Shown: one piece after another, positions 7,712 to 33,479 of the stretch
Layout of the letters: each line of letters starts with the position of its first letter
Position numbering within the stretch: the stretch's first letter is position 1
Assembly: GCA_944388045.1 (NCBI GenBank)
Contig: CALXHG010000009.1
Span: forward strand, 857-64,856
Reading direction: 5' to 3'
DNA length: 64,000 nt
Origin: an uncultured Clostridia bacterium
GTDB lineage: Bacteria; Bacillota; Clostridia; TANB77; CAG-508
Notes under the pieces: generated by a model
What the model saw: only the letters and a program-made list of their open reading frames with translations
What the model was told of the DNA's origin: nothing
The model's database searches: none
Position numbers and translations under genes: made by a program

Positions 7712-7734
7712 TTGACTTCACTTTCCTTTTCATG

Positions 7735-7797
7735 TTGGGGTCGGTCCCTTTTTCTGTTGGGGTCGGTCCCTTTTCTCGTTGGGGTCGGTCCCTTTTT
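7735..7797 (-). repeat. 22-bp tandem repeat array, 3 units (core GGGACCGACCCC on minus strand)
   Basis: TTGGGGTCGGTCCCTTTTTCTG / TTGGGGTCGGTCCCTTTTCTCG / TTGGGGTCGGTCCCTTTTT; sits between def stop and the start of 7070..7711. Confidence 0.9.
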
Positions 7798-18611: not shown

Positions 18612-18816
18612 TTGGGTGGGTCTTGTTGGGGTCGGTCCCAAAACAAAAAAGGGACCGACCCCGACACAAAAAGGGACCGACCCCAACAACAAAAGGGACC
18701 GACCCCGACAACAAAAGGGACCGACCCCAACAACAAAAGGGACCGACCCCGACACAAAAAGGGACCGACCCCAAAACAAAAAGGGACCGACCCCAACAAC
18801 AAAAGGGACCGACCCC
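18612..18816 (+). repeat. Hairpin-capped 22-bp tandem repeat array, 1 inverted + 8 direct units (core GGGACCGACCCC)
   Basis: Direct cores start at 18651, 18673, 18695, 18717, 18739, 18761, 18783 and 18805 (exact period 22); inverted unit at 18626-18639; the array ends 12 nt from the addA stop. Confidence 0.95.
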
Positions 18817-18827
18817 AGTAGCCTATT

Positions 18828-21800
18828 TCAAGCTAGATTGACATCAATTTCTTTTTCTAAATATGTTGAATATATATATGCTTTATCTACTTTTCTTTCT
18901 AAAGCTGATTCTAATGCATTTTTATATAATTCTAATTGTGTTTTATATTTATCAATTAATATTTTTTCTTGTTTATTTGCAACATAATCTGTTTTAAAAT
19001 CTACTAATATTAGTTTTCCTTTTTCATTTATATAATACAAGTCTATAATACCTTGAACAAGTATTTTTTCTTCTACATTTTTATTATATATTTCTTTTGC
19101 AGGAATATTTATATAAAAAGGCTTTTCTCTTTCCACAACATTTGCTTTAGTCATCTCTTTCCAAATATTTGATTTGGTAAATTGTAGTATTTTATTTAAA
19201 TTAATAGCATATGCTTCTTGTTGTGTGATTATTTTTTTAGCAACTAGTTTTTCAACTAATTCTTTTATTCCTTCTAAATTATATTCTTGTTTTTTTACAT
19301 CCAATTTTTGCATACATAAATGTATTAATGTTCCCTTTTCAGCATTTGTTATTTTTACATCTTCGTCTGATTGTAAAAATTTAGGTTTTGGCAACTCTTC
19401 ACATTCATTAATATTTTCTAATGTTTTTGGATTCTGATTAATTCTAATATTATTTTCTATAGCATTATTATAAGCACATTTATAATTATTTAACTTATCA
19501 ATATCATTCTCTATAATATCACTATATTGTCTATTAATATTATTTATTTTGCTCTCTAAACTCATTTGTTTTATTTGTGTTACTGATGTTTTTGTTGGTA
19601 TTATTGTAGATTCTATAAATGGATATATATAATTTAATTTTTCTATAATCTGTTTTTCTAATTTTTCTTCTTTAGGATATTCATCTAATTTTTTTATTAT
19701 ATTTTTAGATATGTCTTCTTCATCTTCTTTTTTATTTTCTTTTTCATACATATTTATTATTTCATCTTTTTTATAATAATTCCATGTAGAAAGTTCATTC
19801 ATTTTTTCTTTATTGTAATTGTATATTAACATTAGCCATTCTAGATATGATTTTGCATTTTGTAATAACATTACACTTAAATTTTCATATTTTTCGACAT
19901 TTTCCATCATTTTATCTATTTTTTCTTTTTTAGTAAATCCTGTTATAATTATCTTCTCTTTTGCTCTTGTTAATGCAACATATAAAACTCTCATTTCTTC
20001 TGATAAAGTTTCTATTTTTATTTTATTTCTTATTGCCCTTTTTGATAAAGTATCATATCTAATTTGCAAATCATAATCTATATATTTTACACCAATTCCT
20101 AATTCTGGGTGTAATAATATTTTTTGATTTAAATCTTGCAAATTAAATTGTTTTCCAGTATTAGCTAAAATAACAACAGGAAATTCTAGCCCCTTACTTT
20201 TATGTATACTCATAATTCTTATAACATCATCATTTTCTCCAATTACTCTTGCAGAATCCATATCTTTACTACTTGTTTTAATTTTTTCTATATAATTTAT
20301 GAAATTATATAATCCTTTAAAACTAATATTTTCACATTGTTTTGCTATTTCAAATAACATTTTTAAATTGGCTTGTCTTAATTCTCCATTTTTCATAAGT
20401 CCAACATAATTAAAATATCCTGTGTCATTATAAATTTTCCAAATAAATTCTGGTAAGCTTAAATATTCTTGTTCTTTTCTCCACATTTCTAATTTATTCA
20501 AAAAGTCTTCAATTTTTAAACGTAATTCTTCATCTACATTTATTTCGGATTTTAATATTGTTGTATAAAAATTATCATATTTATCACATAGACGAATTTC
20601 TACTAAATCATTATCTGTAAAGCCACCTATCATACTTCTCATTGTTGCCACTAGCGGAATTTCTTGTAATGGATTATCTATAATTTTTAGTAAATTCATA
20701 ATTGTTTGAATTTCTAAACTTTCTAAATATTCTGATGAAGAATCACTAAAAACAGGCATTCCTAATTTTATAATTTCTTTTTCAAATATTGGTGCAGATG
20801 TTTTTGTTGACCTTAATAAAATAACTATATCTTTATATTTTATATCTCTTTGAATTTTGTTTTTTGCATCATAAACTTGAAATTTATTTTCTATTAATTG
20901 TTTTATTTTATTTGCAACAAACTGTGCTTCTACTTCTATATCTTCTTTTCTTTCTACTTCTTCTTTAAATTCTTCATCATCCACATCTTCTTGAAGTGTC
21001 TCAACTTCTAATTCTTCTGGATTTTGTGTTTTTTCATCATTTGTTTCAATTTGTATAATGTCTATTTCTGCTTTTAAATCTTCTCCTGTGTCTTTATAAT
21101 CTGCTCCTAAATTCAAATATTCTTCTTCTGTGTAATTTAATTCTCCTAACTCCTCACTCATTATTTTTGAAAAGATTAAATTAGAAAAATCTAAGACTTC
21201 TCTTCTGCTTCTAAAATTTTTGAATAATTGAATTTTTAAATCATCTTTTTCTGTTTTTTGTTGCTTTAATTTGTATTTTTTATATTTATCTAAAAATAAA
21301 TCTGGTCTTGCTTGTCTAAATTTATAAATACTTTGTTTTACATCTCCAACCATGAAAATATTATTTCCTTTAGAAATTGATGTTAATATATATTCTTGCA
21401 CTAAATTACTATCTTGATATTCATCTATTGCTATTTCTTCAAATTTTTGTTGATATTTTTTTGCAATTTCTGTTGGATTGCCATTTTCGTCTATTAAAAT
21501 TTTTAAAGCAAAGTGTTCTATATCACTAAAATCTACTATATTTTTCTCTTTTTTCTTTTTAGAAAATTGGCTCGAAAACTCTAATATAACATTTTCTAGT
21601 TTGTTTAGTATTTTATACATATGAATTATATCTTTAAAACTTTCTTGTGAATTCATAACTAATACTTTATCTGCAACAGCTTCTAATGATTTTATGACTT
21701 TTGACCTTACTTTTTGAGCACTTATTTTATCTTCTGTTTTTATTTTTGAGTCCACTAGCCATTTTCCAAAATTTATTGAACTATATATTTCATATGCTTT

Positions 21801-22613
21801 ATCCCATGTATCTAAATTAGCTTGTAATAATTCTAATTGTTGTAAATTTCCTCTTAAAAGTTCATAACTTTTTTTCAATTCATCAATTTTTGATAAATTT
21901 TCAACTTCTGGTTTTAATTGATATATTCCATCATCAACAATTTCTTTTATTTGATTTAACAATATATTTCCCCAAGTTGTTTTGGAAAAATCTTGATTTA
22001 TATCTTCTGGGAAATTAAACATTTCTATTTTTTCATGTAACCATTTTTCTGGATATGGATTGCTTTGAATATATTTGTAAATTGTTAATATCAAATCTTT
22101 TAATGGTGTATCATCTCTATATTCTGTATATGTATTTACTAATTTTAAGAAATCTTCATCATTATTTTCATATTTTTCTTCAAACAAATCTTCTAATACA
22201 TCTTGTTGTAATATTTCTATTTCTGTCGTATCTCCTATTCTAAAATTGTTTGACAAATCAATTTCAAAGAAATTATTTCTTACTACATCTAAACAAAAAG
22301 AGTCTATTGTACATATACTAGATTTATTTAATAAAGTTACTTGTCTTTGTAGTCGTTCATCATCTGGTTTTTCATCAATTTTTTTATATATTGCTTTTAA
22401 AACTCTTTCTCTCATTTCTGATGCTGCTGCATTTGTAAAAGTTACTACTAAAAGTCTATCTATATCTATTTTTTCATTTATTATTTTATTTATTATTCTT
22501 TCAACTAATACTGCTGTTTTTCCACTTCCTGCAGCAGCTGCAACCAATATATTATTTCCTTTTTCATATATTGCTTGTTCTTGCTCTTTAGTCCATTTTA
22601 CTTCTTCAGCCAT
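18828..22613 (-). CDS. addA: ATP-dependent helicase/nuclease subunit A (AddA/RexA type)
   Basis: UvrD-type helicase N-terminus (AAAGSGKTAVLVERI), 1261 aa, C-terminal PD-(D/E)XK nuclease motif GIIDLYY...LVDFKTDY. Confidence 0.88.
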   Translation of the reverse strand: MAEEVKWTKEQEQAIYEKGNNILVAAAAGSGKTAVLVERIINKIINEKIDIDRLLVVTFTNAAASEMRERVLKAIYKKIDEKPDDERLQRQVTLLNKSSICTIDSFCLDVVRNNFFEIDLSNNFRIGDTTEIEILQQDVLEDLFEEKYENNDEDFLKLVNTYTEYRDDTPLKDLILTIYKYIQSNPYPEKWLHEKIEMFNFPEDINQDFSKTTWGNILLNQIKEIVDDGIYQLKPEVENLSKIDELKKSYELLRGNLQQLELLQANLDTWDKAYEIYSSINFGKWLVDSKIKTEDKISAQKVRSKVIKSLEAVADKVLVMNSQESFKDIIHMYKILNKLENVILEFSSQFSKKKKEKNIVDFSDIEHFALKILIDENGNPTEIAKKYQQKFEEIAIDEYQDSNLVQEYILTSISKGNNIFMVGDVKQSIYKFRQARPDLFLDKYKKYKLKQQKTEKDDLKIQLFKNFRSRREVLDFSNLIFSKIMSEELGELNYTEEEYLNLGADYKDTGEDLKAEIDIIQIETNDEKTQNPEELEVETLQEDVDDEEFKEEVERKEDIEVEAQFVANKIKQLIENKFQVYDAKNKIQRDIKYKDIVILLRSTKTSAPIFEKEIIKLGMPVFSDSSSEYLESLEIQTIMNLLKIIDNPLQEIPLVATMRSMIGGFTDNDLVEIRLCDKYDNFYTTILKSEINVDEELRLKIEDFLNKLEMWRKEQEYLSLPEFIWKIYNDTGYFNYVGLMKNGELRQANLKMLFEIAKQCENISFKGLYNFINYIEKIKTSSKDMDSARVIGENDDVIRIMSIHKSKGLEFPVVILANTGKQFNLQDLNQKILLHPELGIGVKYIDYDLQIRYDTLSKRAIRNKIKIETLSEEMRVLYVALTRAKEKIIITGFTKKEKIDKMMENVEKYENLSVMLLQNAKSYLEWLMLIYNYNKEKMNELSTWNYYKKDEIINMYEKENKKEDEEDISKNIIKKLDEYPKEEKLEKQIIEKLNYIYPFIESTIIPTKTSVTQIKQMSLESKINNINRQYSDIIENDIDKLNNYKCAYNNAIENNIRINQNPKTLENINECEELPKPKFLQSDEDVKITNAEKGTLIHLCMQKLDVKKQEYNLEGIKELVEKLVAKKIITQQEAYAINLNKILQFTKSNIWKEMTKANVVEREKPFYINIPAKEIYNKNVEEKILVQGIIDLYYINEKGKLILVDFKTDYVANKQEKILIDKYKTQLELYKNALESALERKVDKAYIYSTYLEKEIDVNLA

Positions 22614-22638: not shown

Positions 22639-22694
22639 GTGCCGGTTCTCTTTTTTACTTTTTGTTGGCAAAAAAGTACCGGTTCTCTTTTTTT
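22639..22694 (+). repeat. Family H2 motif, direct pair
   Basis: GTGCCGGTTCTCTTTTTT (22639) and GTACCGGTTCTCTTTTTTT (22676), immediately upstream of the addA start. Confidence 0.65.
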
Positions 22695-22800
22695 CTATTT
22701 TGATTGATGTATAATTCCAAATATTAATCAAAATAGTATCAATCATATTTTAATAAATTATTTACAAAAAATCAAATATTTTTTATGTTATATTCATACT

Positions 22801-23192
22801 GTGGTCGGTCCCTTTTTGTGTCGGGGTCGGTCCTCTTTTTGGTTGGGGTCGGTCCTAAATCAAACCAATATAAATTGTTTTTTATACCTTGTGTGTCGCA
22901 ACCTACAAAAGAATTTCAATAAGTAGGTTGCTCCAAATCGCATTCGCTACGCTCATTTGGTCGCTTACGCGGTATTACAAAACAATTTATATTGGTTTGA
23001 TTTAGGACCGACCCCAACCAAAAAGAGGACCGACCCCGACAACAAAAGGGACCGACCCCGACACAAAAAGGGACCGACCCCGACAACAAAAGGGACCGAC
23101 CCCGACAACAAAAGGGACCGACCCCGACAACAAAAGGGACCGACCCCAACACCAAAAGGGACCGACCCCAACACCAAAAGGGACCGACCCCA
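22801..23192. repeat. Palindromic composite of the 22-bp repeat family: 3 inverted units + unique core + 9 direct units
   Basis: ~85-bp inverted arms (22801-22886 vs 22971-23060) flank an 84-bp GC-richer core with its own hairpin (22898-22931); direct cores run every 22 bp from 23004 to 23180. Confidence 0.95.
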
Positions 23193-23261
23193 GATAAAAA
23201 CAGCATTTATGTCGCAAAAAGGAGCAGAGAACAACTATAGTCATTCTCTGCTCCTTTCGCC

Positions 23262-23615
23262 TTAGGTCTCGTCGTTATTAATCAATTTCCGCAGATCCAA
23301 GACCCCATTGTGGGGCTTAATATCTGCCTTAACCAAATCGTGGGATTTTTCATCCCACACGAGAACCTCTGCGTCACCATCTGCCAGAATCAGTTTACGG
23401 ATTTTTCCGTTGCGAGCATCAAGCCCACAGGCATAACCTGCTGTCTTCTGGCTGTCAGGCTCCCCCTTGACAATAATAATATCATCGGTGCCGTCACCAC
23501 TCAACCGCATGCCGGTACCACCCCAACGAAGAATCGCCGCTAATTTTCGAACGTCTTCCCTGTCAAGGATAATAACTACACTTTTCATACTTTTTTCCTC
23601 CTTGTCATTCGACAA
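23262..23615 (-). CDS. Hypothetical protein, GC-anomalous single-gene islet
   Basis: 117-aa ORF (probably from MKSVVIILD), much higher G+C than backbone, in-frame CGG codon, GGAGG RBS, consensus promoter upstream. Confidence 0.55.
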   Translation of the reverse strand: MSNDKEEKSMKSVVIILDREDVRKLAAILRWGGTGMRLSGDGTDDIIIVKGEPDSQKTAGYACGLDARNGKIRKLILADGDAEVLVWDEKSHDLVKADIKPHNGVLDLRKLINNDET

Positions 23616-23661
23616 ATAATGTGTGTGTAGCTTTCAGCTTTGGTCTAAACCAAACTATTTA

Positions 23662-23690
23662 ATTATATACCATTTTTTGAAATTTGTCAA
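23662..23690 (-). promoter_or_regulatory. Consensus sigma-A type promoter for 23262..23615
   Basis: Minus strand TTGACA - 17 nt - TATAAT (-35 at 23685-23690, -10 at 23662-23667). Confidence 0.65.
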
Positions 23691-24471: not shown

Positions 24472-24576
24472 AACAAAATAAATTCCTTTCTTTTTTTGTT
24501 ATTATTGGTAAAATAATATAAAATTATACATTTATTAACTTTTAAATTATTTATTTAAACTTATTATATTTATATA

Positions 24577-24705
24577 TATTAATAATTTATTGATAACAAT
24601 ATACTAATAAGTTTATTATTTATATCTTTATCTATTAATAATTTATTGACTATAATATACTAATAAGCTTATTATTCATATTTTTATCTATTAATAATTA
24701 TATTT
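24577..24705 (+). repeat. 56-bp direct repeat, about 2.3 copies, upstream of sleB
   Basis: TATTAATAATTTATTGA(T/C)... copies start at 24577, 24633 and 24689. Confidence 0.7.
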
Positions 24706-29517: not shown

Positions 29518-29688
29518 TGTTGGGGTCGGTCCCTTTTTGTGTTAGGGTCGGTCCCAAAACAAAAAAGGGACCGACCCTAACACAAAAAGGGACCGACCCT
29601 AACACAAAAAGGGACCGACCCCAACAACAAAAGGGACCGACCCTAACACAAAAAGGGACCGACCCCAACACAAAAAGGGACCGACCCC
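29518..29688 (+). repeat. Hairpin-capped 22-bp tandem repeat array, 2 inverted + 6 direct units
   Basis: Inverted units 29520-29555, loop AAAACAAAAAA, direct cores at 29567, 29589, 29611, 29633, 29655 and 29677; ends CCCCAGTA 9 nt from the stop of 29697..30347. Confidence 0.95.
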
Positions 29689-33398: not shown

Positions 33399-33417
33399 AA
33401 AATCTCCTATCTTCTAT

Positions 33418-33479
33418 CAGGGTCGGTCCCTTTTTCTATTGGGGTCGGTCCCTTTTTCTATTGGGGTCGGTCCCTTTTT
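33418..33479 (-). repeat. 22-bp tandem repeat array, 3 units (core on minus strand)
   Basis: CAGGGTCGGTCCCTTTTTCTA / TTGGGGTCGGTCCCTTTTTCTA / TTGGGGTCGGTCCCTTTTT; begins 19 nt upstream of the M50 protease start codon. Confidence 0.9.

Follow-up and report, generated by a model that had tools for sequence, protein, structure and literature searches.

The palindromic feature that lies between addA and a GC-rich orphan gene in a 64,000-nt stretch of DNA from an uncultured Clostridia bacterium (in the following called the window) is probably a copy of a non-autonomous foldback or MITE-type transposon, placed at the centre of a palindromic minisatellite. The element family is apparently undescribed. 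A transposable element had already been considered in a preliminary description of this DNA, and that reading was borne out by the multi-copy nature of the core, by empty sites in other strains, by covariation among homologous copies and by 8-bp target-site duplications (TSDs) in sister subfamilies. The feature itself is small and non-coding, possesses terminal inverted repeats and occurs as filled and empty sites, and the remaining MITE traits, many copies per genome and a TSD, were seen in its relatives only.

Results

Architecture of the palindrome and its genomic context

A repeat search of the window revealed two inverted arms of 82 nt each (22803-22884 and 22976-23057), which are 96% complementary and enclose an asymmetric centre of 91 nt; the perfect inner portion of this inverted repeat is about 60 nt long. 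The components are listed in Table 1, and the arms, repeat units and hairpins of the preliminary description were all found in place. The left outer arm, with its three units, is a mirror image of units one to three of the right array, down to the variants specific to single units. Among these, the rare variants AGGACC and the spacer AACCAAAAAGA are present on both sides and absent from the rest of the window. With at most one mismatch allowed, the 12-mer GGGACCGACCCC occurs 35 times in the window (0.00 expected), and the 24-nt sequence of the inner arm has exactly two occurrences, one per strand (0.00 expected). The layers also differ in composition, with a GC content of 0.435 in the core and about 0.15 in the inner arms, compared with 0.266 for the whole window.

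Table 1 Features of the foldback locus and its surroundings (window positions)
Feature	Position	Strand	Remarks
Whole foldback	22803..23057	.	82-nt arms and 91-nt asymmetric centre
Left outer arm, three 22-bp units	22801..22856	-	GGGACCGACCCC box and ~10-nt A-rich spacer per unit
Left inner arm, TAAATCAAACCAATATAAATTG and T-run	22856..22883	+	AT-rich, GC 0.14
Conserved core	22884..22975	.	covariance model match 22873-22986, 120.9 bits
P1 helix, 5 bp	ATACC 22884-22888 / GGTAT 22971-22975		
P4 hairpin, GCAACCTAC-N16-GTAGGTTGC	22898-22931		stem 22898-22906 / 22923-22931
P3	CCAAAT 22933-22938 / ATTTGG 22955-22960		
P3 apical GC..GC stem	22946-22947 / 22951-22952		
Invariant stretch GCTTACGC	22963-22970		GC-GUAA-GC in minus-strand reading
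Right inner arm	22979..23004	+	reverse complement of left inner arm
Right array, nine phased 22-bp units	23004..23191	+	first ~2.5 units within the 82-nt inverted repeat
Terminator-like hairpin of 108-codon gene	23218-23257	-	
108-codon GC-rich orphan gene	23262-23588	-	
Promoter-like site before addA	22775-22747	-	
addA	18828-22613	-	UvrD helicase and PD-(D/E)XK domains

The outer termini CCCCAGTA and CCCCAGAT had been proposed as the ends of the element on account of their likeness. This proposal was not upheld, since the same likeness is common to all 22-bp arrays in the window: coreless arrays have the same ends, and the outer ends of the arrays are therefore not element termini. No second occurrence of the window-type arms was found elsewhere in the data searched.

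Read along the minus strand, the order of features is the 108-codon gene, its terminator hairpin, the nine units, the element, the three inverted units, the promoter-like site and addA. The assignment of addA was confirmed by its domains; the accompanying argument that the feature occupies the usual place of addB failed, because addA of a sister species (locus L061) is likewise not preceded by addB. The 108-aa neighbour matched no Pfam, NCBIfam or PHROG family and had only four relatives among 5.8 billion proteins. A homologue with 66% identity in another organism has no array adjoining it.

Distribution and conservation of the family in gut Clostridia

An exact 22-base pattern taken from the core (CAACCTAC-N14-18-GTAGGTTGCTCCAA) was scanned against species-representative genomes and gave 84 loci. 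The 80 of these for which titles were listed represent at least 27 species-level MAGs; all were labelled as uncultured Clostridia, Clostridium sp. or Eubacteriales, and they came from mouse, wild-rodent and other animal guts. A covariance model built from 43 non-redundant copies gave 100 matches in 85 sources, comprising the pattern loci and the window, and about a dozen of these had been missed by the exact pattern. From metagenomes, 18 further full-length copies were obtained in 15 contigs. The MAG CALXCA01 contains at least 19 copies, and several copies each were present in CANONT01, CASDJM01, CAPIEU01 and CARBKU01. The core, previously described as unique, is indeed single within the 64-kb window according to the covariance model (22873-22986); homologues sought in relatives showed that it is multi-copy in related genomes. 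A scan of viral contigs revealed no copy, BLAST of plasmid and phage collections gave no match to the window copy or to a subfamily-A copy (see below), and the window-type junction had no match in JGI metagenomes.

The copies are intergenic between called ORFs, with one exception overlapping a mechanical ORF call. The nearest upstream ORF ended 50-200 nt away in 47 of 62 cases, and one paralogous gene without a Pfam domain precedes four copies.

A common plan was recognized in every copy: long arms, a T-run, the 5-bp helix P1, TTG(T)GTGTCG, hairpin P4, CTCCAA, hairpin P3, the apical stem of which varies in length, GGTCGCTTACGC, P1', TGCAAAA and finally the second arm. Measured from arm end to arm end, the elements span 146-243 bp. 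Their arms are 20-107 nt long in most copies, and about a dozen have shorter ungapped arms. Length differences between the hairpin loops do not come in multiples of three, and a conserved ORF is thereby excluded.

Conservation was concentrated in the centre. Among 14 subfamily representatives, mean identity of the core was 0.80 with the variable loops included, a value inflated by the 22 positions that the search pattern forced, although the remaining positions are conserved too. Over 40 nt of either arm, identity between the same representatives was only 0.53-0.54, compared with 0.51 for shuffled arms. Within each copy, the arms are nevertheless near-perfect complements of each other.

How the two arms stay matched can be followed in a pair of orthologous copies from two species (loci L048 and L079), the flanks of which are 91% and 90% identical. 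Three compensatory double substitutions were present in the arms of this pair, and thus the palindrome is maintained in place, either because pairing is selected for or through conversion of one arm by the other. Overall, the element was 89% identical, i.e. it had diverged at about the rate of its flanks, and P1 was damaged in one of the two copies. Single copies therefore seem to be without protection at the level of the host, and decay at the flank rate agrees more readily with a selfish element than with a host gene.

Target-site duplications and the search for an autonomous partner

Evidence of transposition came from subfamily A, whose members are 190-243 bp long and have the ends TTCAAGTTTCGAC... 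and TTCAAGTTTCGACTTTTTGC ... GCAAAAAGTCGAAACTTGAA. Perfect 8-of-8 direct repeats flanked 9 of its 19 copies and one further copy had a repeat of 7/8, whereas none of 342 control combinations, in which left and right flanks were taken from different copies, gave an 8/8 match. Several other copies of this subfamily showed repeats of 9-10 bp, with the register shifted by one or two bases, and in subfamily B (CAATGCTGTCAAC...) duplications of 8-10 bp were recognized by eye. The length of the TSD thus appears to vary between 8 and 10 bp. To our knowledge, only staggered-cut transposition leaves flanking 8-bp repeats of this kind. Duplications of 8-9 bp are typical of several IS families, namely IS256, ISL3, IS6, IS66, IS1595 and ISAs1.

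For the window copy and its own subfamily, no TSD was visible, and here the palindrome runs on into the arrays. The TSDs suggested as a check in the preliminary description were detected in sister subfamilies and not at this locus.

An autonomous partner was searched for in about 0.9 Mb of fetched loci. The searches for end sequences away from cores, for multi-copy families among 479 ORFs and for inverted repeats 0.5-4.5 kb apart returned only other small copies, and neither a transposase nor an autonomous element with matching ends turned up. Resemblances to what we take to be the ends of Tn7, of IS6/IS26 (TGTTGCAAA) and of IS66 (GTAAGCG) were short, internal or misoriented, and we make no claim from them.

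Hairpins of the core and their strand preference

When the 91-nt centre was folded alone, it was only modestly more stable than shuffled sequences (z = -2.5 for the plus strand and -2.8 for the minus strand), and the case for a structure therefore rests on comparative data and not on folding energy. In the model alignment, 95.3% of the cells assigned to pairs were paired, compared with 89.2% in shuffles. Changes on both sides were counted in 10 of 20 base pairs: all 5 pairs of P1, 3 of the 9 pairs of P4 and both pairs of apical P3, where the counts for P4 and P3 carry a selection bias from the exact P4 pattern with which the alignment had been gathered. Sliding the partners by one to three columns resulted in a sharp drop of the covariation score. 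The apical stems vary in length across copies, with compensatory changes. Thus, homologous copies do covary in a covariance model, a point on which the preliminary description had made its structural reading depend. Judged from the aligned copies, the core hairpins are clearly conserved, in a pattern that would suit folded DNA as well as RNA. P1 is the innermost part of the inverted repeat.

These structural data bear on a reading that we consider unlikely, although it deserves attention: the feature might primarily be the gene of a small structured RNA, with the arms forming an RNase III-type processing stem that releases a minus-sense RNA of about 95 nt, and mobility would then be secondary. 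Consistent with such a gene, the unpaired stretches of the core are strongly conserved across at least 27 species despite replacement of the arms, covariation extends over P1, P4 and apical P3 together with the variable apical stems, and two features point to the minus strand. The first is the invariant GC-GUAA-GC motif, a GNRA tetraloop (GUAA) on that strand, for which a single GUAA-to-GCAA variant was found among the copies. The second is an asymmetry of wobble pairs in the core helices, with 32 G-U cells in the minus sense and 11 in the plus sense (binomial p = 0.002, the cells not being independent). However, covariation in P1 is equally expected of the inner inverted repeat of a transposon, the arms showed no wobble asymmetry (25 versus 19 G-T-type mismatches, p = 0.45), and the consensus folding energies of the two strands, -47.9 and -50.7, favoured neither. 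Moreover, of 48 co-directional contexts, 33 had the putative sense strand running opposite to the neighbouring genes (p = 0.013), so that read-through would mostly yield the wrong strand. Rfam gave no match at any threshold: none in the whole window at the gathering score, and at permissive thresholds, for the element and the bare core, only generic microRNA-precursor hairpins far below the cut-offs or chance matches with E values of about 9. A search for tRNA and tmRNA found none, and a scan for promoter-like and terminator-like sites gave none in or at the element. The orthologous copy that decays at the flank rate and loses P1 also speaks against an RNA gene.

On the minus strand, a weak TTGTAG-16-TATAAA was noticed by eye as a possible promoter; it was rejected, as it failed the criteria of the scanner and has its first hexamer in a loop that is not conserved.

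Arrays of the 22-bp unit and their centres

Besides the arrays of the foldback, the window contains four other arrays of the 22-bp unit. GGGACCGACCCC together with its spacer is not self-complementary, and hairpins form only between units of opposite orientation. The arrays at 18628-18816 and 29522-29688 consist of one or two inverted units followed by many direct units, and their symmetry centre is formed by GGGGTCGGTCCC-AAAACAAAAAA-GGGACCGACCCC only, where AAAACAAAAAA is an A-rich loop of 11 nt. An array with such a short fold-back end is thus the common structure, to which the core and inner arms have been added at the centre of a single array.

In the sister species CALXCA01, addA of which is 88% identical, cores were likewise centred in arrays, here of the type '--++'. 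Each locus has unit spacers of its own, repeated in mirror image on either side of the core, and this mirroring would fit hairpin-templated copying. Two of these core-bearing arrays are orthologous to the plain-centre arrays of the window at 18.6 kb and 29.5 kb. From the orthologous positions it follows that the arrays are old and stable in place and that the state of the centre switches between species. The window-type outer box GGGGTCGGTCC aligns with the differing box GGTGCCGGATC of a second local subfamily, and both arms have changed in a matching way; the array unit is thus homologous to the outer arm of the element. The arrays may grow from element ends, the elements may target array centres, or cassettes may recombine between arrays. 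A literature search with the unit sequence gave no paper describing the unit.

Filled and empty alleles

Corresponding loci of other strains were retrieved from metagenome assemblies via exact matches to the 108-aa protein and to AddA. The filled allele was present in five contigs (L001, L004, L006, L096 and L097) with flanks 100% identical to the window. Five others (L002, L003, L005, L007 and L010), with flanks 99.0-99.9% identical, carried an empty allele, ...GGGGTCGGTCCC TTTTTTGTTTT GGGACCGACCCC AGTATG..., i.e. a plain hairpin centre followed by one inverted unit. The empty sites by which the preliminary description would have recognized a transposable element therefore exist in near-identical strains. 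Across strains, the copy number of the long array ranged from 5 to 11 units, as in a minisatellite. Compared with the empty allele, the filled allele contains two additional inverted units with unusual spacers, which are mirrored on the opposite side, and it has no flanking direct repeat. The two alleles are not convertible into each other by simple insertion or excision.

This relationship would be expected if the palindrome had arisen locally without mobility, the cassette having entered the array from another array or strain by homologous recombination through the 22-bp units, or the left arm having arisen by hairpin-primed fold-back copying of the units at the start of the right array. The mirrored units with their rare variants, the locus-specific mirrored spacers of the sister species, the absent TSD and the orthologous arrays with a core in one species and a plain loop in the other all agree with it. 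As a full account it is nevertheless improbable, since it leaves more than 100 copies at unrelated intergenic sites and the 8-bp duplications of subfamilies A and B unexplained. At most it covers the arrival of the present copy, and to that extent it is compatible with a foldback transposon.

One additional contig (L008; flank 99.55% identical to the window) carried the filled allele with a reversed core, which is entered from the same array in the opposite orientation, the strand being confirmed by the covariance model. This contig and three of those with the filled allele (L004, L006 and L097) break within the element. The default largest k-mer of metaSPAdes is 55. A perfect repeat of about 60 nt exceeds this length, so that both orientations give the same k-mer set and the assembler may follow the wrong path. 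That the element is an invertible segment, a phase-variation switch which alters expression of addA or of the upstream gene by recombination of the 82-nt arms, is highly improbable: besides the broken contigs and a report that Correia elements, at the paired repeats of which RNase III cuts, can invert (review PMC10969869), its evidence is the single truncated contig L008, whereas the five other filled-allele contigs reaching the core share the orientation of the window, at least six pairs of orthologous copies between species are all co-oriented with none flipped, the segment contains no promoter-like site, and none of nine scanned neighbouring ORFs (two of which, including the 108-aa gene, had no Pfam match at all) encodes a recombinase domain.

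Discussion

A working model of the element

The element is built of three layers: a core of about 95 nt with three conserved hairpins and a 5-bp closing helix, AT-rich inner arms, and outer boxes that are specific for the subfamily. In the lineage of the window, the outer boxes are the minisatellite unit GGGACCGACCCC, which places the element exactly at the symmetry centre of the palindromic array. Copies may be spread by a trans-acting transposase, presumably of the DDE type, that cuts with a stagger of about 8 bp. The conserved core could act in cis as a mobility module recognized either as folded DNA or by its sequence, and the arms would only need to pair. Symmetry of the arms might be kept by arm-to-arm gene conversion or by hairpin-templated repair. 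As for the present copy, either transposition or homologous recombination between repeat units may have brought it into its array.

A plain model in which a transposase recognizes the ends of the element does not explain a conserved centre combined with changing arms. A conserved centre with free arms suggests instead either that recognition depends on structure or that the element carries a functional RNA. More speculatively, the core of about 95 nt may itself be the unit of selection, a new structured RNA or folded single-stranded DNA module that is recognized by an enzyme or host factor and spreads as a bacterial foldback transposon. Pairing of the arms and not their sequence would then matter, and in the lineage of the window, hairpin-templated copying would extend the arms into palindromic 22-bp minisatellites. 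We hold this extended proposal only tentatively and think it rather unlikely in its full form. If true, it would provide a bacterial counterpart of eukaryotic foldback elements together with a new mechanism by which palindromic arrays are built.

Comparison with known repeat elements

The closest general class is that of prokaryotic MITEs, such as the Correia elements (CREE) of Neisseria, with which the present family shares small size, non-coding and intergenic character, multiple copies, hairpin-capable terminal inverted repeats and insertion polymorphism between strains. A further MITE trait, the TSD, is displayed by subfamilies A and B. In Correia elements the duplicated target is TA, whereas the duplication here is about 8 bp long, and no promoter-like site was detected in the present element. 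In ordinary MITEs, conservation resides in the terminal repeats. In the present family the pattern is reversed, as the centre of about 95 nt is kept in at least 27 species and the arms resemble shuffled sequence. A keyword search of the MITE literature found no similar element.

REP and BIME sequences of enterobacteria consist of short GC-richer boxes in an AT-rich intergenic setting, which alternate around a central motif and are often located just past genes. REP units are imperfect palindromes that are mobilized by RAYT transposases without TSDs. In contrast, the 12-nt box described here is not self-complementary, the units follow a strict tandem phase of 22 bp, and related copies are flanked by 8-bp TSDs.

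In overall design, the element resembles the Foldback (FB) transposons of Drosophila, which have long inverted arms made of short tandem repeats, a non-repetitive centre and a variable number of arm repeats; the target duplication that they cause is also similar in size. FB elements are eukaryotic, of kilobase scale and mobilized by their own or associated coding sequences. The likeness is one of analogy only; we know of no established bacterial counterpart of FB elements.

Judged by its published architecture, the BrickBuilt MITE of Porphyromonas gingivalis offers a further parallel: it is intergenic, occurs in tens of copies and is combined with a minisatellite of about 22-23-nt units, which follow each other without spacers and vary in number (PMC4596501). 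Its body is described there as the tandem repeat itself, with a leader on one side, a tail on the other and small inverted ends. At the level of architecture described in that source, the present family differs in that the tandem units lie outside a unique core, are opposed on its two sides and form a palindrome, and the host belongs to another phylum.

Implications for Clostridia genomes

What is known of uncultured low-GC gut Clostridia comes almost exclusively from metagenome bins, and there is essentially no description of their mobile DNA. The palindromic 22-bp arrays at orthologous sites in two species offer a tractable case in which the formation and upkeep of such arrays can be studied. 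They are also of practical relevance for assembly, as contigs break at these palindromes and may be joined along a wrong path there. For strain typing, presence or absence of the element and the number of units could serve as markers.

Element copies and core variants in other genomes

Four copies of the foldback element were each located 50–60 nt 3' of a member of one paralogous gene family; in one locus (L092), two of these copies lie about 1.6 kb apart. The preceding genes encode proteins of 335–351 aa, in which no Pfam domain was found and to which no function is assigned. Because the elements are 92–98% identical whereas their flanks reach only 71–84%, sequence comparison suggests joint duplication of gene and element, conversion between copies or insertion with a site preference. 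Some copies from several genomes share an insertion of ~50 nt, GCTGTCCACTGTTAAAGCTTTGCTTGTTACAGTGGCAGTATGC, in P3, one of the conserved hairpins of the core. It provides an additional hairpin (CCACTGT/ACAGTGG) and results in a longer core variant.

Variation and arrangement of the 22-bp arrays

When the array to the right of the core was compared with L001–L010, the same locus in strains at least 99% identical, counts of 5, 7, about 8, 9, 10 and 11 units were obtained. With this minisatellite behaviour, the arrays could be used as a marker for strain typing.

Oppositely oriented arrays flank addA and contain exact inverted matches of 31 nt. A second segment of ~3.7 kb is likewise flanked by inverted arrays. 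Via such arrays, whole gene blocks could invert.

Other arrays consist of minus-orientation units only and lack the fold-back end; three units are present in the window and six at the orthologous site of the sister species (represented by MAG CALXCA01). The array at 7725-7796 terminates in TTTTTATACCTT, the 12 nt preceding the closing helix (P1) of the core, and may be the leftover of a lost element.

Genomic surroundings of the element

The 108-codon gene beside the element possesses a terminator hairpin of its own. Its product belongs to no family in Pfam, NCBIfam or PHROG, and only four relatives were detected among 5.8 billion proteins. A homologue from another organism, with 66% identity, likewise has RNase H and cell-wall hydrolase genes in its neighbourhood; no array is present at that locus.

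Two direct copies of GT(G/A)CCGGTTCTCTTTTTT separate the element from the addA start. The box GGTGCCGG(T/A)TC is similar to one known from the sister species, where a second subfamily of elements has it as the alternative box of its outer arms (e.g. L013, L044, L091); there it was also found adjoining arrays (L073, L094). Another intergenic region, between two minus-strand genes, 3' of that for the cell-wall hydrolase and 5' of that for RNase H, harbours a 56-bp tandem repeat containing TTGACA, which may represent a duplicated promoter region.

Positions of the features described (window coordinates unless a locus is named)
Feature	Position or locus	Remarks
Copies behind paralogous family	L035, L088, L092	
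Copies with P3 insertion	L021, L026, L058, L060, L062, L105, L115, L019 842-1011	
Array right of core	23004-23191	
addA	18828-22613	
Arrays flanking addA	18628-18816, 22801-22856	
Inverted 31-nt matches	18652-18682, 22803-22833	
Arrays flanking second segment	29522-29688, 33419-33474	
Minus-only arrays	7725-7796, 33412-33479, L013 2134-2255	
108-codon gene with promoter match	23262-23690	minus strand; GC 0.48 vs genome 0.27
Its promoter-like site, TTGACA-17-TATAAT	23690-23662	perfect match
Direct copies of GT(G/A)CCGGTTCTCTTTTTT	22639-22663, 22676-22700	two, between element and addA start
56-bp tandem repeat	24564-24704	2.5 copies, 88% matches
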